In this document: in pieces, positions 1 through 64,000 of the stretch
How positions within the stretch are numbered: the first letter of the stretch is position 1
Layout: every line of letters starts with the position of its first letter
DNA from: Ostreococcus lucimarinus
Lineage: Eukaryota
Length of the DNA: 64,000 bases
Assembly: GCA_000092065.1 (NCBI GenBank)
Contig: CP000586.1
Strand: one strand, 5' to 3'
The notes under the pieces: model-generated
The model's database searches: none
What the model was told of the DNA's origin: nothing
Seen by the model: the letters and a program-made list of their open reading frames with translations, nothing else
Program-made: the position numbers and the translations under genes

Positions 1-721
1 CGCCTTCCGTCGTCTCTCGCATCGACGCCTTCATCGCTTGCGGCGGCGTCATGAATAAGAGCACCAACGTCGCCGCCGCGACGCTCGCCCAACCGGTCAC
101 GCTAATCGCCGCGCTCAGACTAAATCCGGCGAACAACACCCCTCCCAACGTCGGCCCGACGATAAACGCCAGCGTGCACGACGCCTCGCGCCACGCCATG
201 AGCTGTGGCAAAAATTCTGGCGTCGAAGCGTCGGCGAGATACGCCTTCACCACCGGACTCGCCCCCGCGAACGCGCCGCTCAGCACGCGCAAGAGCAAAA
301 ACGTCTCGAACGACGCCCCAGATCGCACACACAACCCTTGCAAAATCAACCCTATCCCTACTCCCATCAAACTCAACACGATGATCGGTTTCCGACCAAC
401 CTTGTCGCTCAACTGCGGCCAAAAAAAGAGCGCTCCGAACATCCCGAGCGGATACGCGCTCGTGAGATATCCCACGTTCTCCGCCGCGACGCCGAACCGT
501 CGCACCAAACCGGGCGTGATCGGCCCCGTCACCGTAAATCCAAGCAGGTGCAGAAACACCGCGAGCATCACACACGCGATGCTGAGCTTTTGTCGCCATT
601 CGATCCGCGCCGCGTCCGGCGCCGCGCGTTCGCTCGCCTTCGCGTCGTTCGCGCGCGTCCTCGTCCTCATCCTCGCGTGCTCCGCGCCCGCGCGCCGCGC
701 GCCGCGCTCAAACGCGCGCAT
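1..721 (-). CDS. MFS-type transporter, partial (continues past window start); ATG candidates at 721 or 673
   Basis: Minus-strand frame absent from ORF track because it runs off the edge. Translation gives ...LGFTVTGPITPGLVRRFGVAAENVGYLTSAYPLGMFGALFFWPQLSDKVGRKPIIVLSLMGVGIGLILQG..., i.e. MFS motif A (G-x-LSD-x-GR[KR]P) plus successive hydrophobic helices. Open through position 1. Confidence 0.7.
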   Translation of the reverse strand, partial: MRAFERGARRAGAEHARMRTRTRANDAKASERAAPDAARIEWRQKLSIACVMLAVFLHLLGFTVTGPITPGLVRRFGVAAENVGYLTSAYPLGMFGALFFWPQLSDKVGRKPIIVLSLMGVGIGLILQGLCVRSGASFETFLLLRVLSGAFAGASPVVKAYLADASTPEFLPQLMAWREASCTLAFIVGPTLGGVLFAGFSLSAAISVTGWASVAAATLVLLFMTPPQAMKASMRETTEG

Positions 722-1002
722 TTCGACGCCCGCGTCCTCCGCGCGCGCGCCCACGCGCACGCGTCGTCGCGCGTCGCCCGTCCCCATCGCGCGCCCGCCC
801 GGTTTCGCCCGCGAACCGCCGTCGCGTCTCTCGCGTCGTCTCTCCGTCGTCGTCGTCGTCCGAGCCGCGCGGTGCGCGCGCGCGACGATCGCGCGCGTCA
901 TGCGCGTCGCGTCTCGCGCGCGCGGTCGCGAACGCGCGTCGCGAACGCGCGCGTCGGCGTCCTCGAGTGAGGCCCCCTCGACACTCGTCGACGCGACGAA
1001 GG

Positions 1003-1566
1003 ATGTCGACGATGCCGACGACGACGATCTCGGCGCCCGCGCGAGCGGTGCGCGCGAACCGCGCGCGAGGCGCCGTGCGCGCGCGCTCGACGGTGTACGC
1101 GTACGAAACGATCGCGCTCGGACGCACGCTCACCGGGACGCACTTCATCGACTTGACGGAACACATCGACGCCGCGGTGGCGAAGAGCGGCGTGAAGAAC
1201 GGCGTGGTGCACGTGCTGAGTCGACACACGACGACGGCGGTGACGATAAACGAAAACGAGGCGCGATTGATGGACGACGCGAGGATGTACTTTGCGAAGC
1301 TGGCGCCGGCGACGGATTTCTATCTGCACAACGACTTGGACAGACGAAGCGGACCGGCGGATTGGCCGGGCGGCGACGAGGCGTGGCGCGCGCAAGAACC
1401 CGAGAACTGTCACGCGCACTTGTTGAGCATGGTGATCGGGAACAGCGAGACGATTCCAGTGAGCGAGGGGAAGACGACGCTGGGGACGTGGCAGAGTTGC
1501 ATGTTCGTCGAATTAGACGGACCGCGCGAACGCACGGTGGGGATTCAAGTCGTCGGCGAGCGATAG
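1003..1566 (+). CDS. yjbQ: YjbQ/UPF0047 family protein (secondary thiamine-phosphate synthase-like), probably organelle-targeted
   Basis: ORF 967..1566 (track start is GTG; first ATGs at 1003 and 1012). Conserved UPF0047 blocks: TGTHFIDLTEH, VHVLSRHTTTAVTINENE, HLLSMVIGNSETIPVSEGKTTLGTWQSCMFVELDGPRERTV. Confidence 0.8.
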   Translation: MSTMPTTTISAPARAVRANRARGAVRARSTVYAYETIALGRTLTGTHFIDLTEHIDAAVAKSGVKNGVVHVLSRHTTTAVTINENEARLMDDARMYFAKLAPATDFYLHNDLDRRSGPADWPGGDEAWRAQEPENCHAHLLSMVIGNSETIPVSEGKTTLGTWQSCMFVELDGPRERTVGIQVVGER

Positions 1567-1607
1567 ATAGATCCGCGCGTGTACTCTATAACTATTCTAT
1601 GTTACAT

Positions 1608-1976
1608 TCATCGCGACCTCGACGCGTCCAGCGCGTCGAGCTGCGAGCGCAAATCGAAGACGCGGCGGCAGCGCGTCCACCACTCGCCAACCTTCGCCTC
1701 GGGCGCCGGTCGCTGCAACGCGCGCGTCACCTCGCCCCACTCCACGCACCGTTCGCTCATCGCCATGTGTCTCGCGAAGTCCACGTCGGGATCGAACGCG
1801 TCGACCGTCGTCATGTGCATGAACAAGCGCACGCCAGAGCGGTAAATGAACATGTCGACCACGCCGACCGCGCGCAGGCTCTCCAAAATCTCTGGCCACG
1901 CGCGCGCGTGTAGGGCGTCGTACGCCTCGATCGCGTCTTCGCTCTCGAGCTCGATCGTCTGCGCGAACGTCTTCAT
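1608..1976 (-). CDS. L-rhamnose mutarotase-like (RhaM/YiiL family) protein
   Basis: ORF 1608..2069; track start is GTG, first ATG at 1976 (MKTFAQTIELESEDAIEAYDALHARAWPEILESL...VGEWWTRCRRVFDL). ~122 aa, matches the RhaM fold pattern (W-PE-L ... WW). Confidence 0.65.
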   Translation of the reverse strand: MKTFAQTIELESEDAIEAYDALHARAWPEILESLRAVGVVDMFIYRSGVRLFMHMTTVDAFDPDVDFARHMAMSERCVEWGEVTRALQRPAPEAKVGEWWTRCRRVFDLRSQLDALDASRSR

Positions 1977-2186: not shown

Positions 2187-3098
2187 ATGGCGATGATGGA
2201 CGTCGACGACGCGCGCGCGCACCCGGCGGCGCGATTGGTGTTTGACGACGACGAGAGCGTGGAAGTTCGAACGAGCGACGTTTTGAGCGAGGATGCGAAC
2301 GCGCGCGTGCGCGTGCTCACGGCGGACGTGGAGGATGCGATGGATGTGAAGATGAGCGCGGCGAACGCGGGGAAGACGAAAATGGGCGCGGCGACGATGT
2401 TTGCGCGATTGTTCGGGACGGATGGCGAGCGAGGGAGCAAGCGGGACCGAGCGGCGTCGCCGGCGGTGAAAATGAACAGACGGAAAGCCGCCGATGGGAC
2501 GCGCACGCAAGATTTAGGGCGTTTGGCGCGAGAGTTGGCGCAACAATTGGATGAGCCGAAGGTGCGCTTGCTCGCGCGAGCGATAAACGAGCTCGGCGAG
2601 GCGCAAGTCAGAGCGTACGTGCTCGAGGCGGCGACGCAACAGCGCCACGGCGGTGAGATGACCGCGTTGGGAGACCGTCGAAGAACGACGGGAGGGATCT
2701 TTTGGGCCATCGTTCGCGCGAGAACGAAACCGGAGGTGTACGACATCATTTACGCCGAAGAACGAGAACGACAAAAGGAACGAAGCAAGGCGCGCGCTCG
2801 TGCGCGCCGCGCCGCCGCAGACGGCAAGGAAAACATTCCTCCTGTCGGTCATGCCAAGCCTACGATGGCGCAAATCTTGTTTGGAAGCATCAGAGATGAG
2901 CACTTCCCCGAAAACCGCGCGCCCTTGGCCCCGATTGTCGTTCCCATCGACGCCGTCACGCCGAAGCCGACGCTGAAAACCGTTGGATGGGCGGACGACG
3001 ACGACGACTTTGACTTCTCCGCTGGATCCGAGCTCGCGGCGCCGATGAAGACACAAAAGCCCGATTTTACGTTCGCACAAATCGCCAAGATGCGTTAG
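2187..3098 (+). CDS. PHAX: PHAX-like protein (phosphorylated adaptor for RNA export, RNA-binding domain)
   Basis: ATG at 2187. Segment LGRLARELAQQLDEPKVRLLARAINELGEAQVRAYVLEAATQQRHGGEMTALGDRRRTTGGIFWAIVRARTKPEVYDIIYAEERERQKER matches the PHAX RNA-binding domain signature (…GEA…ETA…GG…T.DGSRRRTPGGVF…). Confidence 0.65.
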   Translation: MAMMDVDDARAHPAARLVFDDDESVEVRTSDVLSEDANARVRVLTADVEDAMDVKMSAANAGKTKMGAATMFARLFGTDGERGSKRDRAASPAVKMNRRKAADGTRTQDLGRLARELAQQLDEPKVRLLARAINELGEAQVRAYVLEAATQQRHGGEMTALGDRRRTTGGIFWAIVRARTKPEVYDIIYAEERERQKERSKARARARRAAADGKENIPPVGHAKPTMAQILFGSIRDEHFPENRAPLAPIVVPIDAVTPKPTLKTVGWADDDDDFDFSAGSELAAPMKTQKPDFTFAQIAKMR

Positions 3099-3402
3099 AC
3101 CGCCAAGACTGGCGACTGACGTCCTCGACGAGCGTTTCGCGTCGCGGCGGTCGATGTCAAACCTCGTCTCGCGTGTACTTTACATCTTTAACCCGCGTCC
3201 ACCGGTGGTGTGATCGCCGTGGAATCACCACCAGATCGACGCAATGTTTAATAACGTCACGATTCACACTCTCTGGCGCCACGTCTCGCCGCGTCGCCGC
3301 GCGCGTTCGCCCGTTCGGCGATGGTTCCAATCGACACACACGGACCTTTGAATCCGAGTCACCGACGCGCGGAATCGCGGGTTCATTCCCTCGCGCGTCA
3401 AC

Positions 3403-4082
3403 ATGTTCACCGTTCAAGCCACGCAAATCGTCACCACGGTGCGCATCGACGCACGCTCTCGCGCCCGTTCGTTTCGGCGCGTCACACCGCGGCGCGCGCG
3501 CGACGCGCGCGTCGCACGACGCCGCGACGATCATCGGAGATAGCGTATCTGGACGATCCCGAACGATCGAGACCGACGCCGCGGGACGCGCGCGCGAACG
3601 GCGCGTCGCGCGACGAAGCGGCGCGAATAAATACCTCGCGATGCGCTCGCGAGGCGAACGAACGCGAAGACTGACGCGCGACGCGCTCGCGATCGCAGGC
3701 TAAGGCGCCGACGACGAAGCCCGCGAAGCGCGTCCAAAAGGCGGCGTCGCTCGGCTTGGCCGCCGTCGTCGCGGTTTCGCTTCAAGTCGCCCCGGCTCGC
3801 GCCGATCTCACCTCCGATTTGCTCGCGAAGACGGAAGCGAACAAGGAGTTGAACGATAAGAAGCGCGCCGCGACGTCGAGCGCGAACTTTGAACGCTCTC
3901 GCACCGTCACGGATGGGTTTTGCAACTTTCCGCAAAACATCTTCGGGTGCGAAAACGCCGCGGAGAAGGGCGACGTCAAGTTTTTGTCCGACGATTTGAA
4001 GGTCGAGTGCGAAGGCACGGATGCCGGTAAAATCTGCGCCAGCAAGAACTCTGGTTCGTACCCGTCCTTCCTCGGTTTGTAA
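3403..4082 (+). CDS. psaN: Photosystem I reaction centre subunit N (PsaN) precursor; join(3403..3438,3699..4082)
   Basis: Exon 2 carries the PSI-N signature KTEANKELNDKKRAATSSANFERSRTVTDGFCNFPQNIFGCENAAEKGDVKFLSDDLKVECEGTDAGKIC, preceded by a lumenal targeting domain (KRVQKAASLGLAAVVAVSLQVAPARA, AxA site). No in-frame ATG lies upstream of exon 2 (stop at 3672). Inferred exon 1 is ATGTTCACCGTTCAAGCCACGCAAATCGTCACCACG|GTGCGC (MFTVQATQIVTT). Its intron has the window-typical donor GTGCGC, branch ACTGAC (3669-3674) and acceptor CAG (3696-3698). Confidence 0.7.
3439..3698 (+). other. intron (psaN), 260 bp
   Basis: GTGCGC donor, ACTGAC branch point 25 nt before cgcAG acceptor. Contains the in-frame stop that otherwise truncates the ORF. 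Confidence 0.55.
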
Positions 4083-4102
4083 GCGTGCGAGCGCGGAGCC
4101 CA

Positions 4103-4677: not shown

Positions 4678-4716
4678 GCGAACGAAGGAACGAAGGAGCG
4701 AAGGAACAAAGGAACG

Positions 4717-6450
4717 ATGGCGGCGAGACGCGAACGAGAGGGTGGCGACGGCGGTGATGATGAAATTTCCGAGACCGAGAGTGATCGTTTCATCGTAAAA
4801 GTTGCGGAGTACTTGCAAGGTGCGATCGGTGCGCACGGTTGGAGCGAGGAGACCGTTCGCGGGGCGTTTGACGAGGCGGTGAAGCACATGCCTAAAGGAA
4901 GAGCTCGAAAGGCTTTGCGAGCGGGTTTCGATGAGTACGCGGATAAATTATGTGACACAATTTACCGCAAAAATGGTCCCTCGATCGAGCGCACGAAAGA
5001 GGAGCGTAAGATTGCAAAGTTGAGCAAGGATCCGTCGAGCGCGTGGTGGGCGTTGCATCAAGAGCCGCTCGAAGATTTTGCGTCGGCGTCTTTGGAAGTA
5101 TTGTGCGTAGAGTTTGACTACTCACTCAAACGTGCATCCTTCGATATCCCCGCATACGTCCTCATGAAGGCGTTGGAGATTTCTGACATGCTGCCTGAAG
5201 ATGTAGCGACGATGGAAGAAATTCGCGAGGCGGCACTTCGTCGTCTCGTCGATATCGCGCAAGCATCCAAAGCTGCGTTTGAAAAGAAGGCAACGAAGAC
5301 GCAGGATGACTTCGTCAAGGTGAATAATCTCGTAGGTAGACTCGCGGGCGCGACGGCTATTCGTCGTAAAATGCAAGGCGCTCGTGATGAAACTGCAAAG
5401 TTGGCGGCGGAGATTGTCATGCTGAGGCACGATTTCCGTAAACTCGCCTCGCAAGACGCGAGTCTGAGTCCACCAGAGCACGAGATCGGCGTCACCGCAT
5501 CACACGATGCCGCGGTGTTATTAGGAAACTATCGTGGGGATTTAGCAGCTTTGCTCGCCGAGAGGTTGCCCGAGGACGAGAACGAGCTCGCGCGCATGTT
5601 TGGCGAAGGCGATTTGCCCATCTTTGAGTGCGCCCTCGGCCTCGGTGGTTTCGACGCCGATTTTGAGAAACGAGGCAAAAAGAATGGACTGATGTTCGGC
5701 ATGTTGGATATCGATGTGAAAGATGTGAAAGATGTCGGCAAGAACGCACCTCCGGCGCTCTTACGTCGACCACCAAAGGCAAAGTTTGATGCCAACAAAG
5801 AGGTGAACGATTACGATATGGAAGCTTTCGCTCACGCGGGGGCCGGGGTATCGACGACCAGTATTGCAGAGTCTGCATTTAATAAGTCCGACTTTATCGA
5901 TACCGACTATCTCACCGAGGCGCTGTCGCTGGTGGGTAAAGACGACGACGAACGTAGCGGACCAGGGCGAGTCAAGTTGTACTTTGCCGTCGTGCGAGTC
6001 GCTCGAGCATACATCAAGCTTTTGAACGAGGCTGGTAAACGTAAGAGGTCCTCGGCTGTGGCGCGATACATGGCAGTCGCACCTGCGCCTGAGGTGCTTC
6101 TCATGCACGTTCCGGAGTCGTCTGGAATCGATAATACAGATGCTCGCGCGATGTCCGTCGAGCTCTCCGTCGCCTCCATCAAGGCGCTGCAAAGCATCGT
6201 CAACGAATGGAACGAAATGCGTACGCTGTTCAAATCTGCGGCGCAGAGTGAAGGTGGCTTTTTCATCGATGTTAATCGTACCGCAGGAGATGCCGCGAGG
6301 TTGGCGTTTGAAGAAGGTGAGTCTGCCGAGGACGACGGCGCGGGCGTCGACGACGAAACCGAAAAAGAACTCATGGCCATGCTCGACAAGCTCGAAGGCC
6401 CGGATGCATCTAGCGACGATAGCGACGACGAGGCGAGCGATGAAGATTAG
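4717..6450 (+). CDS. hypothetical protein, 577 aa (acidic termini, no recognised domain)
   Basis: Long ORF with diverse amino-acid composition and markedly lower GC (~50-55%) than flanks. ATG at 4717. Confidence 0.6.
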   Translation: MAARREREGGDGGDDEISETESDRFIVKVAEYLQGAIGAHGWSEETVRGAFDEAVKHMPKGRARKALRAGFDEYADKLCDTIYRKNGPSIERTKEERKIAKLSKDPSSAWWALHQEPLEDFASASLEVLCVEFDYSLKRASFDIPAYVLMKALEISDMLPEDVATMEEIREAALRRLVDIAQASKAAFEKKATKTQDDFVKVNNLVGRLAGATAIRRKMQGARDETAKLAAEIVMLRHDFRKLASQDASLSPPEHEIGVTASHDAAVLLGNYRGDLAALLAERLPEDENELARMFGEGDLPIFECALGLGGFDADFEKRGKKNGLMFGMLDIDVKDVKDVGKNAPPALLRRPPKAKFDANKEVNDYDMEAFAHAGAGVSTTSIAESAFNKSDFIDTDYLTEALSLVGKDDDERSGPGRVKLYFAVVRVARAYIKLLNEAGKRKRSSAVARYMAVAPAPEVLLMHVPESSGIDNTDARAMSVELSVASIKALQSIVNEWNEMRTLFKSAAQSEGGFFIDVNRTAGDAARLAFEEGESAEDDGAGVDDETEKELMAMLDKLEGPDASSDDSDDEASDED

Positions 6451-8009: not shown

Positions 8010-8010
<1 letters not shown>

Positions 8011-19973: not shown

Positions 19974-21125
19974 ATGTCCCGCGGTGCCGGCGCCGGATAC
20001 GATCGGCACATCACCGTATTCTCTCCCGAAGGACGTCTGTACCAAGTCGGTGCGTGTTCGCGCGCGCGCCGACGCCTCCTCGCGCCGTCACCTCGCCCGC
20101 GACGCGCGACGTTCACCGACGAAACGATCTCACCGACTGACCGCGATTCGACGACTTTCGACGCGCAGAGTACGCGTTCAAGGCGATCAAATCCGTCGGC
20201 GTCACCACCATCGGCGTGCGAGGGAAAGACTCCGTGTGCGTCGTGACGCAGAAGAAGATTCCGGTGCGCGAAACGGGCGAACGCGAGGGCGAAGAACGAT
20301 CTCGTCGGCGAACGCGAAGGCGCGAACGCGCTCGAGACGACGCGGGAGGGATCGACCGCGCTGGATCCCGCGAACGCGCGCGCGAGAGGAAGACTGACGC
20401 GTGGTGTGTGATCGGACGTCGCGCGAGCGCAGGATAAATTGATCGATGCGTCGGATGTGACGCACATGTATAAGATTACGAAAACCGTGGGCATGTGCGC
20501 GACGGGAAAAGGACGTACGTTTTCGTTTTCGTCGCTCGGCGGCTTTGTTTGAATGAACACGTACGCGCGCCCGCGCGAGCGCGACTTTTCGCTCGACCGA
20601 TCGACTGACGACTGCTCGCGTCGATTTCGTTTCGCAGCGGATATCCGAGACATAGTACAAAAGGCGCGCAGAAAGGCGGCGGATTTCAAGCAACACTACG
20701 GGTACGAGGTCCCGGTGGACGTGTTGGCGAACATACTCGCCGATGAGTTCCAGGTGTACACGCAGCACGCATACATGCGTCCGCTCGCGGTGATGGTGAT
20801 ATTAATCGCCGTAGATGAGGATCGCGGGCCGAGTCTGTTCAAGTGCGATCCGGCAGGATACTTTGTCGGTTACAGCGCGACGAGCGCGGGGGCGAAGGAG
20901 GTCGAGGCGGTGAACTTCTTGGAGAAGAAGGTCAAGAGCGGCGCATCGTTCGATGTGAATCAGACGGCCCAGCTCGCGATCAGCGCTCTTCAGCACGTGC
21001 TCGGGGAAGAGGTCAAGGCGAGCGAGTTAGAAGTCGCCGTCGTCACGGCGGACAATCCCAATTTCCGCGTCATCAGCGAGAGCGAAGTGGAAGATCATTT
21101 GACATCGATTTCTGAGAGAGACTAG
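19974..21125 (+). CDS. PSMA6: 20S proteasome alpha subunit, alpha-6 type (PSMA6/PAA); join(19974..20049,20169..20263,20433..20514,20638..21125)
   Basis: Spliced product [25 protein letters not shown]|[32 protein letters not shown]|[28 protein letters not shown]|[97 protein letters not shown]... is collinear with PSMA6 with no gaps. All exon junctions restore the expected residues. Confidence 0.9.
20050..20168 (+). other. intron 1 of PSMA6 (119 bp)
   Basis: GTGCGT...ccgACTGACcgcg...cgcAG. Confidence 0.8.
20264..20432 (+). other. intron 2 of PSMA6 (169 bp)
   Basis: GTGCGC...agACTGACgcg...gcgcAG. Confidence 0.8.
20515..20637 (+). other. intron 3 of PSMA6 (123 bp)
   Basis: GTACGT...cgACTGACgactg...tttcgcAG. 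Confidence 0.8.
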
Positions 21126-23658: not shown

Positions 23659-25352
23659 CTAAACGTGCGGAAGGTTGCGCGACGGCGAGCGCACGCGCGA
23701 GGCGGCGGCTTGGCTCAAATCTGCGAAAGGATCGCTCGCGGGCGATCGCGAGGGCGCGGCGCGAGAGGGCGTCGGCGGCGAGACGGAGTCGCGCGCGAAC
23801 GCGGCGGGATTCATCGGTCGCATGCCCTCCGGGAGCGGTCTGGCCGGTCGATACCGCTCGTCGGCGAACATCGGGTTGGTCTGCATCGGAGGCGGCGACG
23901 GTGACGTCGTCGACGGGAAGTGAACGATCGGACGCGGCGGGGTGGGACCGGCGGCAAATGGATTGGACGACGACGACGACGGTCCGGCGATGGAAGCCGT
24001 CGGCAAGACGTCGCCGAAAGGGTTCGCGGAGCTTTGGCTCGTCGTCGTGGCGGCGGTGGACGCTCGCATGACGTCGTCGAGTTCGCTCAGTAAACTTTCC
24101 GCCGTGTGCGTTCGCGTCGCGGCCACTGGCGCGGCGAGTCGAGCCCGCGATGCGACGTCGCCCGCCGCGGCTTTCACGAGCAAATCGTATCGTTCCATCT
24201 CCTTGGTCAACTCGTCGTTCAAATGTATGGCGCTCGCGAGCAAGCCCTCGTCTTCGGCGTTCGAGATAAGCTCGATCAGACGTGGCTGCATCGCGCGGCA
24301 CTGCTCCGAGAGCTCGTTCGCTAAACTAGACGGAGACGGCGGGCGAAGGGCGACGCAGCCGTCGAGGACTTGCGTGAACACCTTGAGCGAATTCGTCGCG
24401 ACGGCGATGTCGCCCTTCAATTTTTCTACGTCTTGCGAATTGTACGTCGTCGACACGGATGTCGTGGCGCGAGATGCCTCGGCAGCGGCTGTGCGCTCGC
24501 TTTCGCGAAGCGCTCTCTGTAATTCGCTCTCAGCGCGGTCCGCGAGTCGTCCCGAGGCGTGCGGCGAGCTCAGATGCGGCGCTCGCACGGGCGTACCCAT
24601 GGCGATGTTCCCAGGGTAAATCCCGTGTCTTTGACGCTGCACCGGTGTCATTGCTTCTTCTTCGTCTTCCTCGAGCGCGCGCGCGATCGCGGCTCGATCC
24701 TCCTCGGAGATATCTTCTCTCTTCGACCAGTCGCCGCCGCCGTTCCAGTCCTCGCGAGCCGCCGACGACGTCGCCCCCCGCGCCACCGACCGTCGCTCAA
24801 CCTCGGGAAACTGAAACCCACGCGCGCGCAACTGATGAAACGCCCCCGCGAACGCGGGCTCTCGCCTCAAATTTACCGCCCACTCGTGAACCAACGCCAA
24901 GGTCTTGTCGCGAACCTCCAAATTCGGCGCTCTCTCGCACAACCGCACCATCGTCTCCGGCACCTCCTTCGCCACCGCCATCGCGTGAAACCGTCCTCCG
25001 CAGTTCTTCATGCACATCTCCAGCGCGAACAGCGCCTTGAGCGTCGCGTCCGCGTCCATCACCGCCCGTCCCTTCGTCGGCGCCGTCAGCTTTGCCCGCA
25101 GCGCCTTGACGCAATCCTTCCCGTGCGCGACGAAATCATCGTTCACGCAGTCGCACAGCCGCAGATTAATCTCCAGCGCGTCATCGACCGTTCGTCTCGC
25201 GCCCGATTTGCACGCCTGCGTCGCGTCGCGCGTCGTCGTCGTCGTCAGTCGTCGCGTCGTCTCCGACAGAATCAGAATTCGTCACAGCGTCGCGCACGCA
25301 CGTGATCGACGATTTTGTACGCCAAGCGGTCGCTCTTATCGTTCAGGAACAT
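23659..25352 (-). CDS. TOM1-like (TOL) protein with VHS and GAT domains; join(23659..25215,25302..25352) on minus strand
   Basis: Main ORF begins with GTG inside the VHS domain and has a stop 43 codons upstream. Exon 1 ATGTTCCTGAACGATAAGAGCGACCGCTTGGCGTACAAAATCGTCGATCAC|GTGCGT (MFLNDKSDRLAYKIVDH) joins via an 86-bp intron (ACTGAC branch, cAG) to ACKSGARRTVDDALEINLRLCDCVNDDFVAHGKDCVKALRAKL...CGGRFHAMAVAKEV...VRDKTLALVHEWAVNL (VHS), then a GAT/coiled region. An alternative ATG lies 4 codons upstream (25364). Confidence 0.7.
25216..25301 (-). other. intron of TOM1-like gene (86 bp)
   Basis: Minus strand: GTGCGTgcgcgacgctgtgacgaattctg...cgACTGACgacgacgacgacgcgcgacgcgacgCAG. Confidence 0.6.
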
Positions 25353-25581
25353 CGTCTTGAGCATCCTCGAGCGTCGACGCGCGCGCGGCGAGGACCGACG
25401 CGAATCCACGGTCGACGCGCGATCGTGTGACCGACGCCTCGGCGACCGCTGGGCACTGTGACGTTTCACATTTTTCACGTTTCGAGGCGCGGTCCCGCGC
25501 GCGCGCGGGCGCGAGAGGACGAAACGCGAGGCGCGCGCGCTGGAGAAAATATTCCGTCGCGCGGGCGCGCGCGCGGCGGCG

Positions 25582-38883: not shown

Positions 38884-39087
38884 CGCGATTCGCGCTCTTC
38901 GTCGCGCTGTGTCGCGCGTCGTCGTCGTCGCCGCGCGCGCGAAAACGCTCGAGTAACGCTCGAGTCTCACGGTCCGTCCGTTTACAACACGGATTTCAGG
39001 GCACAAACCCTCGGCGGCGTCGCGGGCGCGCCGTCGCGACGCGCGGCGCCGCGCACCGACGCGCGCGCGCGACGCGAACGCGCGCGC

Positions 39088-39170
39088 ATGCACACGACGC
39101 GCCCGTGCGGCGCCGCGCGCGACGCGCGCGCGATGTTCGCGTCGACGATGCGTCGACGCGCGCGATGGAT

Positions 39171-41922: not shown

Positions 41923-41947
41923 GTTCGCATCGCGCATCGCATTGTAG

Positions 41948-48561: not shown

Positions 48562-50275
48562 ATGGCTCACGCGCTCGCGCGCGCGCGCGCGCCCGCGTCG
48601 CGAGGACGCGCGCCGGCGCGCGCGTCCGCGCCGGCGACCGCGCGACGATGCGTCGCGCGCGCGGCGCCGATCGCCGCGCGCGAAAAGGCTGCGCGCCGCG
48701 TCGCGATCGCGACGCGCGCGAGCGCGGACGCGCGCGGTGAATACGCGTCGCTCGGACAAGTGTGCGCGGGTACGATGAGAGCGCGCGATGCGAGGGCGCG
48801 AGGACGCGAACGCGCGCGGTCGGGGGGAGGGAGGACGGGACGCGGGCGAACGCGACCCTACGCGGCGAGCGGGACGAGACGCGAAGGCGAAGCGACGACG
48901 GCCGCGACGATGGAGGGAGGCCGAGGGATTCGAACGCGCGCGCGCGGTGAACGAAGCACGAGGCGATGGGCGCGCGGGGACTGACGGAGAGATTGATGCG
49001 TTTGCGTCGCGCGCGACAGTGCTCGGAAGCCAGTGGGGCGACGAGGGCAAGGGGAAATTAGTGGATATTTTGGCGCGCGAATACGACGTCGTGGCGAGAT
49101 GTCAAGGCGGTGCGAACGCGGGTCACACTATTTATGACGATGATGGGAAGAAGTACGCGCTGCATCTCGTTCCGAGCGGGATTTTGAATGAAAACGCGAC
49201 GTGCGTCGTCGGCAACGGCGTCGTGGTGCACCTTCCGGGGATGTTTGATGAGATTGACGCTTTATTAAAGGCTGGTGTGGACGCTCGAGGGCGTATGATG
49301 GTGTCTGATCGCGCGCATTTGTTGTTCGATCTTCATAAAGAAATCGATGGCTTGCGCGAGGCGGAGTTGAGTGGGAATAAAATCGGTACGACGAAGCGCG
49401 GCATCGGTCCCGCGTACGCCTCCAAAGCGACGCGCAACGGGGTTCGTTTGGGGGATATTCGAGACGCCGATAAGTTTGCGAACGCTTTGCGCACGCTTGC
49501 GGCGGACGCGGCGGCTCGATTCGATGGTTTCGAGTACGATGTCGAGGCGGAGATTGTGCGATACAGAGAAATCGCGTCGCGCATCGAGCCGTTCATCGCG
49601 GACACGGTCGAGTACGTCAACGACGCGCACAGGAACGGGAAGAAGATCTTAGTCGAGGGTGCGAACGCGACCATGCTTGATTTGGATTTCGGTACGTATC
49701 CGTTCGTGACGTCCTCCAACCCAGCGATTGGTGGCGTTAGCAATGGCCTCGGTTTGGCGCCGAGAAAGTTTGAAACCATCATCGGCGTCGCCAAGGCGTA
49801 CACCACGCGCGTCGGTGCGGGTCCGTACCCGACTGAACTTTTCGGTGACGTCGCCGATAAACTCCGCGAACTCGGCTACGAGTACGGCACCACCACCGGT
49901 CGCCCTCGTCGCATCGGTTGGTTGGACATGGTGGCGTTGAACTACGCCAACCAAATCAACGGCTTCACGCACTTGAATATCACCAAGCTCGACGTATTGA
50001 GCGAGATGGACGAGCTCAAAATCGGCGTCGCCTACGAGCTTCCTAACGGAAAGACCACGACTGCGTTCCCGGCCGACATCGCCACCTTGGAAAATGTCAA
50101 GGTGGTTTACGAAACCTTGCCCGGTTGGAAAACCGACATCGCAAACGTGCGCTCTTGGGACGACATGCCCGAAAACGCCAAAAAGTACATTCTTCGCTGC
50201 GAGGAGCTCTCGGGCGTCGAGTGTCGCTACATTGGCGTCGGCCCGGGTCGCGACGCCATGGTAATTAAACCGTAA
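48562..50275 (+). CDS. ADSS: Adenylosuccinate synthetase, chloroplast-type precursor; join(48562..48769,49020..50275)
   Basis: Exon 2 ORF (track 48788..) has full AdSS sequence ([15 protein letters not shown]...GGANAGHTI...[11 protein letters not shown]...[14 protein letters not shown]...[10 protein letters not shown]) but an acidic, non-transit-like N-terminus. Exon 1 in another frame ([70 protein letters not shown]) is a typical A/R-rich transit peptide. Splicing at GTACGA (48770) / ACTGAC branch / acAG (49019) gives ...[20 protein letters not shown], matching plant AdSS (...[20 protein letters not shown]). Confidence 0.88.
48770..49019 (+). other. intron of ADSS (250 bp)
   Basis: GTACGATGAG...ggggACTGACggagagattgatgcgtttgcgtcgcgcgcgacAG. 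Confidence 0.75.
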
Positions 50276-50402: not shown

Positions 50403-51218
50403 ATGTCGTCTTTCACCGTCTCTTCGGCGTCGCGCGTCACCGCGCGCGCCGCGACGCGCGTCGCGTCGACGCGCGTCCGCGCGAAAACCTCAAAGTTCGC
50501 GTTCGCCGGCGATCGTCGCCCACGCCGCGACGTCGCGCGCTTCGCGAGCGCCGCGGGCGGCGCCGAGGGCGCGGACCCGTACGCCGTGCTCGGCGTCAAG
50601 CCGGACGCGGACGCGCTGGCGGTGAAGAAGGCGTATAACAGCAAGCAAATGCTGTACAAGGGCGAGGGCGACAAGCTCGCGGCGGTCGAGCGGGCGTACG
50701 AAGCCATCCTGCAAGCTGGCCTGAGCGCGCGATTGAGCGGCAAGGGCGCGGTTGACACGAACGTGCGATTCGCGGATAAGGTGATCCGATCGAAGTGGGC
50801 GCCGCGACCGTGTCCGTCGCCGATGAAGGACGTCGTGGTCAATTACGGATTGACGATGGGGTGCGCGCTCGTCACGCTGGTGACGCCGCCGAACATGCGA
50901 ACGCTGCAAGTGACCATCTTCGCCGCGCTTTTGATGGTGTTCAGGTTCTTTGTGAAACTCGTGGACGTCGATCCGGGTCCTAACGCCGTGCTCGATCCGC
51001 CGGCGGCGCAAAAGCATAACAACGCGAGATTTGCGAGATCCTTCGGCGTCGTCTTGGGGACGTTTGTCGCCACGTTGTTCGTCACGTTTTGGTTGCCGCA
51101 GTTCTTCATCGAGGTGTTGGGGCTGACTGTGCCGGCGTGGGTCATGTTGCACCAGGAAGTTTTCGTGAGCTCTGCGTGCGGGTTCGTCTTAGCGTCGCTC
51201 GTGAGCTTTTATCGATGA
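50403..51218 (+). CDS. J-like domain membrane protein (CPP1/CDF1-like), transit peptide + J-like domain lacking HPD + C-terminal TM helices
   Basis: ATG 50403. S/T/R-rich presequence; DPYAVLGVKPDADALAVKKAYNSKQMLYKGEGDKLAAVERAYEAI (J-like, no HPD); hydrophobic helices LTMGCALVTLVTPP, IFAALLMVFRFFV, FGVVLGTFVATLFVTFWL, CGFVLASLVSF. Confidence 0.6.
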   Translation: MSSFTVSSASRVTARAATRVASTRVRAKTSKFAFAGDRRPRRDVARFASAAGGAEGADPYAVLGVKPDADALAVKKAYNSKQMLYKGEGDKLAAVERAYEAILQAGLSARLSGKGAVDTNVRFADKVIRSKWAPRPCPSPMKDVVVNYGLTMGCALVTLVTPPNMRTLQVTIFAALLMVFRFFVKLVDVDPGPNAVLDPPAAQKHNNARFARSFGVVLGTFVATLFVTFWLPQFFIEVLGLTVPAWVMLHQEVFVSSACGFVLASLVSFYR

Positions 51219-57653: not shown

Positions 57654-58777
57654 TTAGCTCTCTTGGTCAAAAATACCAGCGTGAGTATCCGTCGAGCACA
57701 TGAAGAGCGGATTTTCCACCGTCATCACGCGCTTTTCGTTATCGATGAGCGTGCGCAGCGGCTTGGGCAGCGCAAACATGCGCCTGTGCGACACGGTGTC
57801 GTAAAACTTCATCTCTAATCCACGCTTTTTCAAAGTCTCGTCCGCGTCGACGCCGCTCAAGTCGATGCTCGTGTCGTTTACGGCGAGATTGAAACCCCAC
57901 TCTGACGTGAACGACGGCACGCACATGGTGTAACCGTAAACTTTCGGGAACACTTGCGTCAGAGTGTGATGAATCGGTGAGAAGACGTGATGCGCATCGC
58001 GCACGGACGCGCATCCGCTCTGCGTGACGAAGATTCCTCCCGGCGCGAGCTTCTTGCTCAGCAATCGATAGAAATCCGTCGTGTACAGTTGATAGCACGG
58101 CCCCCCATCGAGCGGGTCGCTCAAATCCATGATGATCACGTCAAAGCTCCCATCGGGCTCGTTCGCCAATCCTTCCTTCGCGTCGCCGATGATCAAACGC
58201 GTTCGTTTATCCCCGTACGCCCCCGCGCTGTAAAACGGCGTGTGCTCTCGGCACATGTTCACCACGTCGCCGTCGATGTCCACCATCACGCACTCCTCCA
58301 CGCTCTCGTGCCTCAACACCTCGCGCAGCGTCGCTCCCTCGCCACCGCCACCGATGAACACCCGCTTCGGGTTCGCGTGCGCCACCAGCGCCGGATGCGC
58401 CAGCGACTCGTGATACACGTACTCGTCGTGCTCGCTCGACTGCATCAACCCATCCGTGATGAGAAGCGACCCGAACGGCACCGTCCGCACGACCTCGACC
58501 TCTTGAAACTTCGACGTCCCCTGATACAGCACCTCCTCGACCTATCGCGCGCGCCGTCGTCGTCGTCGTCGTCGTCAGTCCTCCCTCGCGCGCGTCCCGC
58601 GTCGTCGCGTCGCCGCTCGCGTCCCATCGTCCCATCGTCCCGCCCCCTCGCGTCGCGTCGCGTCGCGTCTTCGCGCACCCGATAGCTCAGCGCGAGCCCA
58701 TCCTCGAGGAGTTCGTGGTACCAGTGCCCCTCGGCGAACGTCTCGGCGCCGTACGCGCTCGGCTCGGCGTCCGCCAT
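57654..58777 (-). CDS. ACL5: Thermospermine synthase ACL5-like / SpeE-family aminopropyltransferase; join(57654..58541,58679..58777) on minus strand
   Basis: Main ORF begins at GTG with an in-frame stop 4 codons upstream. Exon 1 ATG 58777 MADAEPSAYGAETFAEGHWYHELLEDGLALSYR|GTGCGC..(137-bp intron, ACTGAC branch, atAG)..|VEEVLYQGTSKFQEVEVV restores the ACL5 N-terminal HWYEE...LHQGTSEYQ block. Body: GGGEGATLREV, MDLSDPLDGGPCYQLYT, GGIFVTQSG. Confidence 0.85.
58542..58678 (-). other. intron of ACL5-like gene (137 bp)
   Basis: Minus strand GTGCGCgaagacgcg...ggACTGACgacgacgacgacgacgacggcgcgcgcgatAG. Confidence 0.75.
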
Positions 58778-59094
58778 CGCGCGGTGTGTCGAGCGACGCG
58801 TTGTCGCGGTCGCCGCCGCCGCGCGCGCGACGCGCGGGTCGAACCCGCGTCGCGTCGCGCCTTCGCGAAGGGTCTCTCGGTCGATGGTCGTCACTGTTTA
58901 CCCATACGGATCGTGCGTTCGGAGGTGATTTCGAGCGCTTTTGCGACCTCGCGCGCTCGACGCCGCGCGCGTCGCGCCGCGCGCGCGACGCACGCGCGCG
59001 CGCGGCGACCGGTCGAGCGCGCGCGCGCGACCGCGGCGCGCGCGCGAACGCGCGCGACCGCGCGCGACGCGCGCGCGCGCGACGCGAGCGACCG

Positions 59095-62019
59095 ATGGGC
59101 GCGCGCGACGACGATTTGAAACCGAATCGACAGACGGCGTCGATCGCGTCGTTCTTCGCGACGACGCGCGCGACGACGGCGACGCGCGCGACGCGCGACG
59201 ACGGGGGGGACGATGGCGGTGGGAAGCGCGCGCGGACGGGCGAACGCGCGACGGAGGCGATCGCGGTGGACGAGGAGGAGGCGACGCGAGACGACGCGGG
59301 CGCGGCGAGACGCGACGACGCGGTGGATCTCACGATGGAGGGCGAGGAGACGATCGCGACGGCGAGCGGAGGGGGAGGGGGGGGTGGGGACGCGGCGCGC
59401 GACGGCGCGAGGGCGTCGAGGGAGGGCGAGGGATCGAGGGTGAAGGTGCATAGTTTTTTTACGAATTTCGCGAAGAGACGCAAAGCCGCGGCGACGGCGA
59501 GGGAGGGCGAGGGAGGGACGGTGAGGGAGACGCAGGCGGAATTCGTGCGGGTGAAACCGGCACCGATCGAGGAGGCGTTGGGACCGGTGCACGTGGGGTA
59601 CGTGCCGATCGCGTACGAACGGCGGACGGACGCGACGTCGACGACGGTTTCGTTTTCGACTCGCGTCGACGACGGCGAGAGACGTCCGATGACGACGCAC
59701 GCGTTCGAGTTGGTGCAACTCGGGCGAACCGCGCGAGAGGATGTGACGGCGACGCGCGGTGGCGCCGTTTCACGGCCGTCGACGTCGACGGAGTCGGAGG
59801 AGGACGCGTACTTGGCGGACGTCGCCGTCGCGGCGAATCGCGTCGACGTCGAGCTGGACGGTGTCGCGATGGCGACCGAGAGCGAGCTCGCGCGTGCGCG
59901 AGGTGAATGTAGGAATGCGTTGTTAGGGTTGAAGGAACGCGGCGGTCAAAGTCAGGCTGCGTTTCAGTGGGTCGATCGATTCAAGCCGACGCGCGGTTCC
60001 GACACCATCGGTCAAAACGCCGGCGTGGTGGAATCGCTACAGAATTGGTTTCGCGCTTGGCAGGGTCGCATTGCGATGCAGGCGAAAGGGAAAGTACCAC
60101 CATCGCCGTCGCGACCGTGCATCCCTCGTAAGGTGTACGATTCGGACGACGAAGAGTTTTGGCACAGCGACGAAGAAGAGGATGACGGCCTCGGAAGCGG
60201 CGAATCCGTGGCAAACGGCGTTTTGATTAGTGGTCCGGTGGGATGCGGTAAGACGGCCACGGTATACGCGTTGGCGAAGGAGTTTGGATTTAAAGTGCTC
60301 GAGGTGAATGCGTTGGACAGACGCAGTGGTCAAGAAGTCTTGGGGCGATTCACGGAGGCGACTCAATCAAAGCGTTTCGGTAAAAAGGCGAAAGCCGGCG
60401 CTGAGCGGCCGGCGCCGGCGAATGGTGGATTGAAGGCGTTTTTTGGTGGCGCGAGCGATGATGAAACGAAACGAAAAGAAGCGATTGCGGCGAAGACGAA
60501 AGAGGATAACGAAAAAGCAGATGCGCAATCGTTGATTTTGTTTGAAGAGATTGATATTCAACTCGCCTCGGAGCGCGGATTCATGGCGGCGCTTTCGCAA
60601 CTCGTCGAGAACACGAAGCGACCGATTGTTTTTACGTCGAATACGTCAATTTTACCAGATCTTTCGATGAATTTACCTCTGGCGCGTGTGCGATTCGACG
60701 CGCCGGGCATTCGCGAATGTGCGACGTACGCCGCGCTCGTGTCAGCTGCGGCAAAGTCGGCGCTCAGACCGAGCGACGCGACGTCAATTTCGCTCGCGTG
60801 CAAGGGAGATCTGCGTAGAACTTTGCACAACGCTCAATTTGCGTCGTTCAGCGACAGTGAAGTCCACTTTGACTCGATCGCTAGCGATCGTCACTCTACC
60901 GCGCTCATCGACGCCGCTCGCGCCGCTGTGCTCGACGGCGTCAAGCATTTGGGCGCAATACCTGTCGACGCGGCAAAAGAGCTACACGCGAGTTTAGTCG
61001 AGCGAGAGCGAGCTGATTTTGAGTCGATGATGCATGAAGTGGAATGTGGATTGATCAGGCACCAATCGCGGTTGGCGCGTTGGGACGCCATGAAAGAGGC
61101 GAAAAGAATTGAACGAATCGAGGCGAAGAAAAAGTTGCTCGGCATTCCGGCGGACAAAAATCCACTCGATCTCGTGGACTCGACCAAGAAAGAAGTAATC
61201 GTGGACGAACGCACAAAAGAAGACGAGGCCGAAGCTCGGATTCAAGCCGCGCTCGCGGTGTTTGAGCCGCGAGTCCCCTTGCCAGCCCCCGATTGGACGA
61301 CCTTCGACGCCGAGGCGCCCGCGGGCGGGTGGGATCGAGCGCGTGACGAACTCACCGCGCTAGCCGCGCTCGCGCGATCGATGTCGCAAGTTGATGTGTT
61401 GCGATCGGCGACGTGCGTCGGAATCATGGGTCCGTGTCGACGAGACGTGCCGTGGAGTAAGGAAACCATCGGCGACGCGCAAGCGTTAGAAGATTGCGCG
61501 CCGAGTGAAGATTTCTACCTAAGCAACGGACCCGCGCGACAGACGCTCGGTGGAAGCGATAATGTGAGCGTAATGGCGTCTGAATTTATAACGGTCCACT
61601 GCACGCAGCGTTACACGTCCACAAGGCTGTCGCTACGCGAATCTCATCCCGAATCCGAGCCCACGGCGTTGCAACCGATGTGCGCGCCGGCGACGCCAGT
61701 GAAGGCTTCCAAGCGTGCGCGAGGGTCTACTCGAGCTCCCTTGATCATTCAGAGCGGATCTATGCACTCGACGTGGCGCGCGCGAGTTCTCGCCGAATCC
61801 GCGGGTGGGCACACGGTAAATTCGAAGGAGACGACTGATCGATTGGGATTCTTGTCGCGAATGGTTCGCCTTCAGAGCGCGCCAAAGGCGCTCTCGTCGC
61901 CCAACTCTCGAGACTCGCGACGCCGCACCAGAAATAGACGAAAACACTTGGCATTAGCTAGCGAAACGCACGCCGATTTGCTCGACATTTCGAACTTTGG
62001 CGGTAGCAATCATATGTAG
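59095..62019 (+). CDS. RFC1-like AAA+ ATPase, ELG1/ATAD5-like (alternative clamp-loader large subunit)
   Basis: Track start 58786 is GTG; in-frame ATG 59095. RFC box II-like AFQWVDRFKPTRGSDTIGQNAGVVESLQNWF; Walker A LISGPVGCGKTATVYALAKEFGFKVLEVNA; Walker B LILFEEIDI; sensor region TKRPIVFTSN. Confidence 0.7.
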   Translation: MGARDDDLKPNRQTASIASFFATTRATTATRATRDDGGDDGGGKRARTGERATEAIAVDEEEATRDDAGAARRDDAVDLTMEGEETIATASGGGGGGGDAARDGARASREGEGSRVKVHSFFTNFAKRRKAAATAREGEGGTVRETQAEFVRVKPAPIEEALGPVHVGYVPIAYERRTDATSTTVSFSTRVDDGERRPMTTHAFELVQLGRTAREDVTATRGGAVSRPSTSTESEEDAYLADVAVAANRVDVELDGVAMATESELARARGECRNALLGLKERGGQSQAAFQWVDRFKPTRGSDTIGQNAGVVESLQNWFRAWQGRIAMQAKGKVPPSPSRPCIPRKVYDSDDEEFWHSDEEEDDGLGSGESVANGVLISGPVGCGKTATVYALAKEFGFKVLEVNALDRRSGQEVLGRFTEATQSKRFGKKAKAGAERPAPANGGLKAFFGGASDDETKRKEAIAAKTKEDNEKADAQSLILFEEIDIQLASERGFMAALSQLVENTKRPIVFTSNTSILPDLSMNLPLARVRFDAPGIRECATYAALVSAAAKSALRPSDATSISLACKGDLRRTLHNAQFASFSDSEVHFDSIASDRHSTALIDAARAAVLDGVKHLGAIPVDAAKELHASLVERERADFESMMHEVECGLIRHQSRLARWDAMKEAKRIERIEAKKKLLGIPADKNPLDLVDSTKKEVIVDERTKEDEAEARIQAALAVFEPRVPLPAPDWTTFDAEAPAGGWDRARDELTALAALARSMSQVDVLRSATCVGIMGPCRRDVPWSKETIGDAQALEDCAPSEDFYLSNGPARQTLGGSDNVSVMASEFITVHCTQRYTSTRLSLRESHPESEPTALQPMCAPATPVKASKRARGSTRAPLIIQSGSMHSTWRARVLAESAGGHTVNSKETTDRLGFLSRMVRLQSAPKALSSPNSRDSRRRTRNRRKHLALASETHADLLDISNFGGSNHM

Positions 62020-62037
62020 CAAGTACGTACCGGCGCG

Positions 62038-63031
62038 ATGAAATCAGAAAGTCAACCGATGTCGGCGCCGCACTTCGAGGCGCACATGACGTTCGAGCTC
62101 ACGCCCCGCGCGCTCAAACGCGCGTGCTTAGATCAAAACGGGTGCGTCAAACGAATGCGCGGCTGCGACCCTTCGAAATTCGCGCACGCGAGCCGCGCGA
62201 ATGCCACCGCTGAACGCTCTCGTTTGACTCGCGCGCAGATATTCCACTCCAGAGCTCAACGAGGTGCTCTACCTTCATCACAGAGGCATCGTCGAGCTGC
62301 GGCACTTCGAGCCGTATTCAAATTTACGGTGCTTGCACCTCGAGTGCAACGCCATATCTTCGCTCGACGGTTTGCGAGCTTTGACCGAGCTCTCGCAGCT
62401 GTGCGTCGACGGCAACGCGTTGCGCGACTTGCGCGGCGTCGAACGCTTGACAAAACTTCGGCATCTCAACGCGAACGATAACGTGATCGAGACCTTGGAA
62501 CACGCGCGCGGCCACGGGGCGTTAGAAACGCTGTGCGTGCGCGGGAACCGTCTTCGAGACGTGGGCAAGGCGTTGGAGCCGCTGCGAGCGTGCGCGGCGC
62601 TGCGATCGCTCGACGTCTCTCGCAACGACATCGACATCGACGCGGCCACGGACGACGACGCCCGCCGAGGCTTGCTCGAGGCGTTATCACACGTCTCAAA
62701 CGTCGAACTGCTGTATTTCGCCGACGGTAACCCCGCGTCGCGCTCGACCGAGGCCTATCGCGCCGTCGTCGTCGAAGCCCTCCCTCGCCTCCGCTGGCTC
62801 GACGACGCGCCCGTCGACGCCACCTCCCGCCGACTCGCCGCCGCTCGCCTCCTCGACGGCGTTCGAGGCGAAATCCAAGCCCAACGAGACGTCGCCGTCG
62901 AGCGTCGTCGCCGCGCCGACGCCGAGCACGCCGCCTTCCCCGTCGCGTGCGCCGCCGTCGCGCGCGCCCGCCGCGCGCGTCCCGTCGCCGACGTCGACGC
63001 CCTCGACGCCCTCGACGCCCATCTCGCGTGA
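62038..63031 (+). CDS. DNAAF1: Dynein axonemal assembly factor 1 (DNAAF1/LRRC50/ODA7), LRR protein; join(62038..62141,62239..63031)
   Basis: Track ORF starts with GTG and has a stop 13 codons upstream. Exon 1 (ATG 62038 or 62086) ...MTFELTPRALKRACLDQNG|GTGCGT..97-bp intron..cgcgcAG|YSTPELNEVLYLHHRGIVELRHFEPYSNLRCLHLECNAISSLDGLRALTELSQLCVDGNALRDL... is collinear with human DNAAF1 [32 protein letters not shown]...LRCLWL. Confidence 0.8.
62142..62238 (+). other. intron of DNAAF1 (97 bp)
   Basis: GTGCGTcaaacgaatg...ccgCTGAACgctctcgtttgactcgcgcgCAG. Confidence 0.7.
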
Positions 63032-63112
63032 CCGCGCGCGCCGCCTCATTTTTCCTCGCGCGTCCCTCGCGCGTCGCGCCCCACCGCCGTCGCGCGTTCC
63101 TCCAATCGTCGA

Positions 63113-63160
63113 AATCATCAAATCTCAAATCTCAAATCTCAAATCTCAAATCTCAAATCC
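63113..63160. repeat. (AAATCTC)n heptanucleotide microsatellite, ~6.5 units
   Basis: atcaaatctcaaatctcaaatctcaaatctcaaatctcaaatcc between DNAAF1 stop and WIPI start. Confidence 0.9.
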
Positions 63161-63211
63161 AAAAGTCGTTACGCATCCGCGTCCGAGCCGTCGTTCGCAC
63201 TCACCGCCGCG

Positions 63212-64000
63212 ATGCCCGCCGTCGCCGTCAACGCCGCGTCGCACAACCAGGACTTCACGTACGTCGCCCTGGCGACGTCTCGCGGGTACGTCATCCACAG
63301 CACGCTCGACGGCCAGCGGTACCACGGCGACGACGCGCTCGGCGGTTTAAAACTCGTCGAGATGCTCTTCACGTCGTCGCTGTTGTGCGTCGTCGGCGAC
63401 GGCGACAGCGCGCGCATGAGCCCGAGACGGGTGAAAATACTCGACGCGCGATGCCGACGCGTGCTGGGGGAGATCGCGTGCGCGAGCACGGTGCTGGCGG
63501 TGCGATTGAACCGAGCGAGGGTGATCGCGCGAGAGCGAACGCGGTGCACGATATACGAATTGGGGACGCTGGCGAGACAACAGACGATCGATACGGTGGC
63601 GTGCGAACGAGGATTGGTGGCGCTGAGCGCGGATGCGGAGAGCTCGGTGCTGGCGTTCGCGGGAAGCGCGAGCGAGGGGAAGGTGGTGGTGCACGATGCG
63701 TTGAATTTGTGCGAGATTTGCGAGGTGCGAGCGCACCGAACGCCGCTGGCGGCGTTGGCGTTGAACGCGGATGGGACGATGTTGGCCACGGCGAGCGTGA
63801 AAGGAACGGTGATTCGAGTGACGGCGCTGCCGAGTGGGACGAAGATGTGGAGTTTTCGACGAGGGGCGACGAGTTCGGTGATACAGAGTTTGAATTTTGG
63901 GGCGACGGCGTTTCAACCGCCGCTGTTGTGCGTTTCGAGCGATAAAGGAACGGCGCACGTGTTCGCGATTGAGGGCGAACCGAAGGAGTGCGAATCGTTC
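63212..64000 (+). CDS. WD-repeat phosphoinositide-interacting protein (WIPI/Atg18 PROPPIN), partial, continues past window end
   Basis: Not in ORF track (runs off edge). ATG 63212: MPAVAVNAASHNQDFTYVALATSRGYVIHSTLDG...LKLVEMLFTSSLLCVVGDGDSARMSPRRVKILDARCRRVLGEIACASTVLAVRLNRARVIARERTRCTIYELGT...HRTPLAALALNADGTMLATASVKGTVIRVTALPSGTKMWSFRRGATSS.IQSLNFG...LLCVSSDKGTAHVFAIEG, collinear with WIPI2/Atg18 (F..NQD, EMLFSSSLVAIVG, SPRRL.I.NTK, VLAVRLNR.RLVVVLE..IYIYD, AH.SPLAALAF...GTKLATASEKGTVIRVF, FRRG, SSDTGTVHIF). Confidence 0.8.
   Translation, partial: MPAVAVNAASHNQDFTYVALATSRGYVIHSTLDGQRYHGDDALGGLKLVEMLFTSSLLCVVGDGDSARMSPRRVKILDARCRRVLGEIACASTVLAVRLNRARVIARERTRCTIYELGTLARQQTIDTVACERGLVALSADAESSVLAFAGSASEGKVVVHDALNLCEICEVRAHRTPLAALALNADGTMLATASVKGTVIRVTALPSGTKMWSFRRGATSSVIQSLNFGATAFQPPLLCVSSDKGTAHVFAIEGEPKECESF

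Follow-up and report, generated by a model that had tools for sequence, protein, structure and literature searches.

The closest described relatives of the introns treated here come from the same genome. Irimia and Roy (2008; PMC2483917) confirmed 560 introns of this strain of Ostreococcus lucimarinus from expressed sequence tags (ESTs), and among the 319 EST-confirmed introns outside chromosome 2 they found ACTGAC in 87.15% and GACTGACG in 66.5%, together with a strong 5' splice site (4.8 bits) of atypical consensus, GTGCGTG; introns of chromosome 2 are without these signals, and a grammar built on them misses about 13% of the introns outside it (PMC2483917). Canonical introns of Micromonas RCC299 and CCMP1545 read AG/GTGCGT and NCTGAC, a class that occurs in all Mamiellophyceae (Verhelst et al. 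2013, PMC3879977), and a preprint describes GYGCGY donors in Mamiellales together with a standard pairing sequence in U1 small nuclear RNA (snRNA), with no compensatory change (bioRxiv 10.1101/2022.06.08.495308). Here we examine eight introns in a 64,000-nt stretch of O. lucimarinus contig CP000586.1 (assembly GCA_000092065.1; the window), for which an initial annotation had proposed, from the letters of the sequence, a common donor hexamer, a common ACTGAC branch, and hidden first exons upstream of truncated open reading frames (ORFs). How uniform are these signals, and are the first exons real?

All eight introns could be placed at defined coordinates, as the initial annotation had held, and they fall in six genes, each of which becomes a complete ATG-to-stop ORF after splicing (6/6). 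Junctions were placed from the sequence and spliced in silico, and intron-less contigs were fetched and aligned back to the window. The boundaries are GT..AG in 8/8 introns, the shortest intron has 86 nt and the longest 260 nt (1,241 nt for all eight together), and six of the eight are first introns, located 12-70 codons into the gene. Independent contigs from several samples, which differ from the window by 0.1-0.7%, lack precisely the intron at six of the eight junctions (psaN, PSMA6 x3, ADSS, ACL5-like); for the remaining two (VHS, DNAAF1-like) the basis is RefSeq or comparative data. The spliced proteins of four of the six genes (psaN, PSMA6, VHS, ACL5-like) are identical to O. lucimarinus RefSeq entries at every residue, and Pfam domains run uninterrupted across the junctions of PSMA6, ACL5-like and ADSS. 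The spliced mRNAs encode full-length conserved proteins, and excision occurs at exactly these boundaries. These data support genuine spliceosomal introns with the upstream mini-exons as real first exons, and we assign the introns, with a probability of about 0.95, to the ordinary U2-type class that is canonical for normal O. lucimarinus chromosomes and for other Mamiellophyceae. Their signals were already known, for this species since 2008 and for the whole class later, and the initial annotation is a correct rediscovery of them. The features are as follows.

3403..3438, plus strand: psaN exon 1, 12 codons, MFTVQATQIVTT; present in intron-less contigs L009-L013
3439-3698, plus strand: psaN intron, 260 nt; donor GTGCGCA; acceptor GCAG
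3699..4082, plus strand: psaN exon 2 including the stop codon; Pfam PsaN 1.5e-44, residues 6-128
19974..21125, plus strand: PSMA6 (20S proteasome alpha-1 type) gene; exons 19974-20049, 20169-20263, 20433-20514 and 20638-21125
20050-20168, plus strand: PSMA6 intron 1, 119 nt with donor GTGCGTG and branch motif GACTGACC (branch A 28 nt from the AG)
20264-20432, plus strand: PSMA6 intron 2, 169 nt with donor GTGCGCG and branch motif GACTGACG (branch A 35 nt from the AG)
20515-20637, plus strand: PSMA6 intron 3, 123 nt with donor GTACGTT and branch motif GACTGACG (branch A 29 nt from the AG)
25302..25364, minus strand: VHS/GAT (TOM1-like) exon 1, 21 codons; spliced 539-aa product identical to XP_001418360
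25301-25216, minus strand: VHS/GAT intron, 86 nt with donor GTGCGTG and branch motif GACTGACG (branch A 29 nt from the AG)
48562..48769, plus strand: ADSS exon 1, encoding an A/R-rich presequence; its last base, 48769, is followed by 49020 in contig L004
48770-49019, plus strand: ADSS intron, 250 nt with donor GTACGAT, branch motif GACTGACG (branch A 35 nt from the AG) and acceptor ACAG
58679..58777, minus strand: ACL5-like (thermospermine synthase) exon 1, 33 codons including HWYHELLEDG
58678-58542, minus strand: ACL5-like intron, 137 nt with donor GTGCGCG, branch motif GACTGACG (branch A 33 nt from the AG) and acceptor ATAG
62086..62141, plus strand: exon 1 of the DNAAF1-like leucine-rich repeat (LRR) gene, 19 codons, MTFELTPRALKRACLDQNG
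62142-62238, plus strand: DNAAF1-like intron, 97 nt; donor GTGCGTC; without ACTGAC

The donors read GTGCGC three times, GTGCGT three times, and GTACGT and GTACGA once each, so that GT[AG]CG is present in 8/8. The hexamer GT[GA]CG[TC], which the initial annotation had assigned to every intron, fits 7/8, the exception being GTACGA in ADSS. The ACTGAC branch likewise claimed for every intron is found in 7/8 (GACTGACG in 6/8), where 24-35 nt separate the branch A from the acceptor G; the DNAAF1-like intron has TTTGAC and CTGAAC instead. The observation is in this respect partly confirmed, and the statement that all eight share the signals was slightly overstated. Acceptors are GCAG in six cases, ACAG in one and ATAG in one, the last 20 nt of the introns are only 40-70% pyrimidine, and the exons end in CG, AC or GG before the donors. 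A U12-type identity, considered only for the likewise rigid donor and branch consensus of that class, tested negative: donors here are GT[AG]CG and the branch is ACTGAC, versus a U12 donor of [AG]TATCCTT and a U12 branch of TCCTTAAC.

The junctions seen in intron-less contigs are the most direct part of this evidence. The psaN intron carries GACTGACG at 3669-3676, its branch A lying 24 nt from the acceptor, and is removed exactly in the five contigs L009-L013 (four Logan runs and two JGI samples), and it is kept in TARA metagenome contigs L001-L003. Its spliced product of 139 aa matches XP_001418138 exactly, which together with the intron-less contigs bears out the proposed 12-codon first exon. 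All three PSMA6 introns are missing in contigs L005-L008, each from another Logan run (three of these contigs were refetched full length as L014-L016); the spliced product of 246 aa is XP_001418143, and the Pfam domains Proteasome_A_N (1-23/23) and Proteasome (4-189/189) cover all of its junctions. In PSMA6 intron 2 an AG stands 5 nt upstream of the used acceptor (20426-20432, GAGCGCAG/G) and is skipped in every intron-less contig; choice of the first AG after the branch is therefore not the rule here. The ACL5-like intron is absent from Logan contig L020, the spliced product of 328 aa is XP_001418368, and Spermine_synt_N (2-53/53) covers residues 19-70, across the junction. An Ostreococcus-like contig, L018, holds the orthologous intron with position, GTGCGC and GACTGACG all kept and exon 1 conserved; nucleotide identity is about 60% in the intron interior versus 83-86% in the flanking exons.

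For ADSS, the A/R-rich first exon that had been proposed agrees with the junction in contig L004 and with the O. tauri orthologue Q017T9.2, which carries a homologous end of exon 1, ...AELGNVCAVLGSQWG. The donor GTACGA at 48770 restores the frame and is the one used by L004. A GTGCGC 8 nt upstream, at 48762, which would fit the common hexamer, is a decoy: combined with acceptor 49019 it breaks the frame, and combined with acceptor 49029 it removes the conserved VLGS. Adenylsucc_synt (Pfam, 1-415/416) begins right at the junction. The main ORF (48788-50275) opens with an ATG inside the intron, which makes ADSS the exception to the earlier statement that the main ORFs start with GTG or TTG; that statement holds for psaN, ACL5-like, DNAAF1-like and VHS. 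The RefSeq entry XP_001418148 (UniProt A4RYD2, 428 aa) begins at this same ATG at 48788, within the true intron, with a short spurious first exon joined to VLGSQW, and is without the real A/R-rich exon; prokaryote-style callers start from that ATG as well, giving a 495-aa product in which intron sequence is translated. The reference model has a wrong first exon and is missing the plastid presequence.

In the VHS gene, the Pfam VHS alignment begins at residue 24 and leaves out exon 1, and exact look-up of the spliced protein returned no contig. Logan contig L014 (6,013 nt, comprising a LON-domain gene, spliced PSMA6, CDC27 and most of VHS) has its end precisely at 25215, where VHS exon 2 begins and where an assembly graph is expected to split between spliced and unspliced reads; as support for VHS splicing, this end is circumstantial.

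The first exon of the DNAAF1-like gene is upheld by comparison: its peptide is conserved in related contigs, as MAFVLTPRALERACVDQNG in L018 and MSFELTPRALARACLDQKG in L019, with intron position and phase kept, and exon identity is 75-84%, versus about 66% in the intron interior. In place of ACTGAC the intron has tTTGACt 11 nt before the acceptor G and gCTGAAc further upstream, and all three sequences have [G/T]TTGAC at 10-15 nt from the acceptor (window 62205-62238, L018 ~6125-6150, L019 ~3240-3262). Judged from this recurrence, [G/T]TTGAC may serve as a branch site that departs from the consensus yet is conserved, and that stands unusually close to the acceptor. The RefSeq entry, XP_001418154, is flagged 'partial' and consists of the bare 255-aa ORF without exon 1; the 19-codon exon would complete it.

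The name of this gene, which occupies 62086-63031, is itself weak: the best solved-structure matches are PPP1R7/SDS22 and internalin LRRs, and 'dynein assembly factor 1' as a name for its relatives comes from JGI automatic naming only. Ostreococcus is not known to have a flagellum, and a DNAAF1 orthologue would therefore be unexpected. Logan contigs L021-L023, which retain the DNAAF1-like intron, are 99.7% identical to window positions 59379-63020 and have nothing in common with 63021-64000. The break at 63020/63021 is a structural variant 9 nt before the stop codon, giving a 291-aa product with another C-terminus followed by an HMA-domain ORF; that product (P0123), considered as a sign of another intron in the gene, is explained by this variant downstream of 63020.

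Intron-less contigs could in principle also be genomic alleles from which introns had been lost, in other words a presence/absence polymorphism. These contigs include intergenic sequence and neighbouring genes on both strands, and they differ by 0.1-0.7% from the window, both of which would suit genomic DNA. Such a reading would, however, require the three PSMA6 introns to have gone together in four samples, and run SRR28369075 yields both an intron-less psaN contig (L012) and an intron-less ADSS contig (L004), at loci some 45 kb apart. Because the TARA metagenome contigs, drawn from the same population, keep the psaN intron, the intron-less contigs are most simply, and given the exact loss of the introns most likely, transcript assemblies, and the 560 EST-confirmed introns of this strain point the same way. 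In very compact genomes, overlapping untranslated regions (UTRs) cause assemblers to merge neighbouring transcripts. We consider allelic loss very unlikely, and even if it had occurred, exact loss at GT..AG boundaries would still imply spliceosomal introns. As an observation on assembly, contigs L004, L005-L008 and L014-L016 span two to four adjacent genes on both strands, which is consistent with overlapping or abutting UTRs letting assemblers fuse adjacent transcripts.

The other two alternatives concern the signals rather than the contigs, and to both we give next to no credence. Might donor, ACTGAC and AG co-occur by chance in a CG-rich genome, some first exons then being spurious? A composite pattern, in which ACTGAC has a donor no more than 400 nt away and is followed by an AG after 20-40 nt, occurs at 10 loci in the window versus 6.3 +/- 2.5 in first-order Markov simulations, and 3/10 of these loci (13610+, 32472-, 56216-) are false, lying inside long, well-supported coding ORFs; a relaxed version returns 201 candidates. 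ACTGAC as a word is also unenriched, with 15 copies versus 20.7 +/- 4.6 expected from dinucleotide shuffles (both strands). Yet 7/15 copies lie within the 1,241 nt of independently supported intron, versus 0.15 expected, the probability of finding ACTGAC in a 25-nt slot in at least seven of eight introns is about 1e-17, and that of at least seven of eight donors fitting, given GT, is about 1e-9; with six junctions confirmed by intron-less contigs and four products equal to RefSeq proteins, chance is already refuted for those six junctions. The eight introns might instead be copies of one mobile introner element (IE) such as IE-C of Micromonas RCC299, which shares the GACTGACG branch motif (PMC3879977), and some intron pairs do reach local alignment z-scores of up to 8 against mononucleotide shuffles. 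These alignments, however, are CG-rich low-complexity runs (GACGCG...), and random window segments score the same (maximum 23 vs 22). Lengths vary from 86 to 260 nt, and in related contigs the ACL5-like and DNAAF1-like introns have orthologues at identical positions whose interiors have diverged; these introns are therefore old and unique.

Several points weigh against reading all eight as U2-type introns built on one fixed grammar. The grammar is a strong consensus, not a rule, given the GTACGA donor of ADSS and the DNAAF1-like intron; no copy of ACTGAC occurs within 58580-64000, and hence none in that intron. The assignment of ACTGAC as the branch site draws on its position and on analogy, and the identity of the Logan and JGI intron-less contigs as transcripts is something we infer from the exact loss of the introns. 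Junction 23-mers gave 0 matches in JGI metagenome contigs both for the VHS splice and for the DNAAF1-like splice, results that are uninformative since a positive control was impossible.

The eight other copies of ACTGAC, the only ones outside the seven introns on both strands, are not introns. The copy at 3115 is found past the PHAX stop codon, in sequence that transcript contigs match colinearly; those at 13610, 32467, 32587 and 56211 lie within coding ORFs; the one at 36227 is antisense to a coding ORF; at 37174 the only AG is 8 nt away; and the copy at 41947 is past a stop codon. The small number outside introns may mean that exons and spacers avoid the branch motif, or may be a plain effect of codon usage.

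How might such rigid signals arise? O. lucimarinus has an intron-poor genome, and its few introns have come by convergence to carry almost invariant signals: a 5' splice site resembling GUGCGY, a (G)ACUGAC(G) branch, and a YAG acceptor at a short, fixed spacing from that branch. From general spliceosome biology, ACUGAC would pair with GUAGUA of U2 snRNA (A-U, C-G, U-A, G.U, a bulged A, and C-G), as UACUAAC does in yeast, and a rigid branch consensus of this kind would substitute for the weak branch and polypyrimidine tract of intron-rich species. The TTTGAC variant could form a U.G wobble with U2. The preference for C at donor position +4 is not explained by this scheme. Rfam, at its gathering score, returned no snRNA, tRNA or other RNA family anywhere in the window.

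As an aid to annotation, the grammar is of qualified use. The initial annotation had called it a handy rule. Used alone it is a weak one: the composite pattern turns up about as often as chance would predict, lacks specificity, and is usable only with reading-frame or homology context. A relaxed donor and branch scan with ORF joining was abandoned after giving the 201 candidates, most of them spurious in GC-rich sequence, so the eight introns do not constitute a complete census of the window. What is new is at the level of annotation only, namely the corrections to XP_001418148 / A4RYD2 (ADSS) and XP_001418154 (DNAAF1-like): the 2007 reference annotation models 2/6 intron-containing genes of the window with a faulty 5' end. 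It is possible, though we put it forward tentatively, that this rate holds genome-wide, in which case a sizeable share of the intron-containing O. lucimarinus proteins in RefSeq and UniProt would carry wrong N-termini and lead to wrong targeting predictions. Equally tentatively, the DNAAF1-like intron may represent a conserved minor branch-site variant. Because the introns are 5'-proximal, single-ORF or prokaryote-style callers lose the start codon, the transit peptide or the N-terminal domain, and in compact, intron-poor algae generally such introns conceal start codons and transit peptides from ORF-based callers. Metagenome PsaN calls of 150/151 aa begin with intron-encoded residues, including KTDA from the branch motif, and for the same reason many metagenome-derived Ostreococcus 'proteins' are truncated or intron-translated, a routine outcome of metagenome gene calling for the genes treated here. 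The value for discovery is small and the practical value modest.

The window is gene-dense with a GC content of 0.53-0.68. This composition, with eight introns placed in six genes, would fit the normal genome rather than the atypical low-GC, intron-dense part of chromosome 2. Exact-sequence look-up identified five plain ORFs with RefSeq proteins: 2187-3098 (XP_001418137), 14703-18077 (XP_001418357), 44445-45416 (XP_001418365), 45605-47395 (XP_001418147) and 50403-51218 (XP_001418149), all of them on a record of 818,664 bp. The RefSeq matches are to Ostreococcus lucimarinus CCE9901, which identifies the window as nuclear DNA of that strain, and TARA and ENA metagenome contigs are near-identical to it. 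The signals had been described as reminiscent of Mamiellales, and the source organism is in fact a member of that order. At 18764-19690, in the LON N-terminal-domain gene, RefSeq XP_001418142 is 263 aa long (start MDALRARV) and the first-ATG ORF 308 aa, a difference in the choice of start codon with no intron involved. ARAGORN called a tRNA-Ala(CGC) at 39058-39130 and a 94-nt tRNA-Pro(CGG) at 58971-59064, both on the minus strand; these are probably false positives in CG-rich sequence.

Set beside the known systems, the window agrees most closely with the canonical introns of O. lucimarinus itself (PMC2483917): the frequencies are near-identical, with ACTGAC in 7/8 introns (87.5%) and GACTGACG in 6/8, and what the window adds is single examples, the non-consensus DNAAF1-like intron (TTGAC) and one GTACGA donor. 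Micromonas differs in geometry, its branch lying 43-52 bp upstream of the acceptor (PMC3879977) versus 24-35 nt here, and in its exon ends, which are AG there and CG, AC or GG here. The IE-C introns of Micromonas are likewise short and carry GACTGACG, but their copies are mutually alignable, whereas the eight introns described here share signals only. Saccharomyces and other hemiascomycetes (GTATGT...TACTAAC...YAG) present the same overall picture, being intron-poor, with near-invariant donor and branch, introns concentrated towards gene starts, and a polypyrimidine tract that is weak or missing. The letters of the consensus nevertheless differ, GTATGT and ACTAAC in the yeasts versus GTGCGY and ACTGAC here, and the convergence of signals in yeast and Ostreococcus was independent (PMC2483917).

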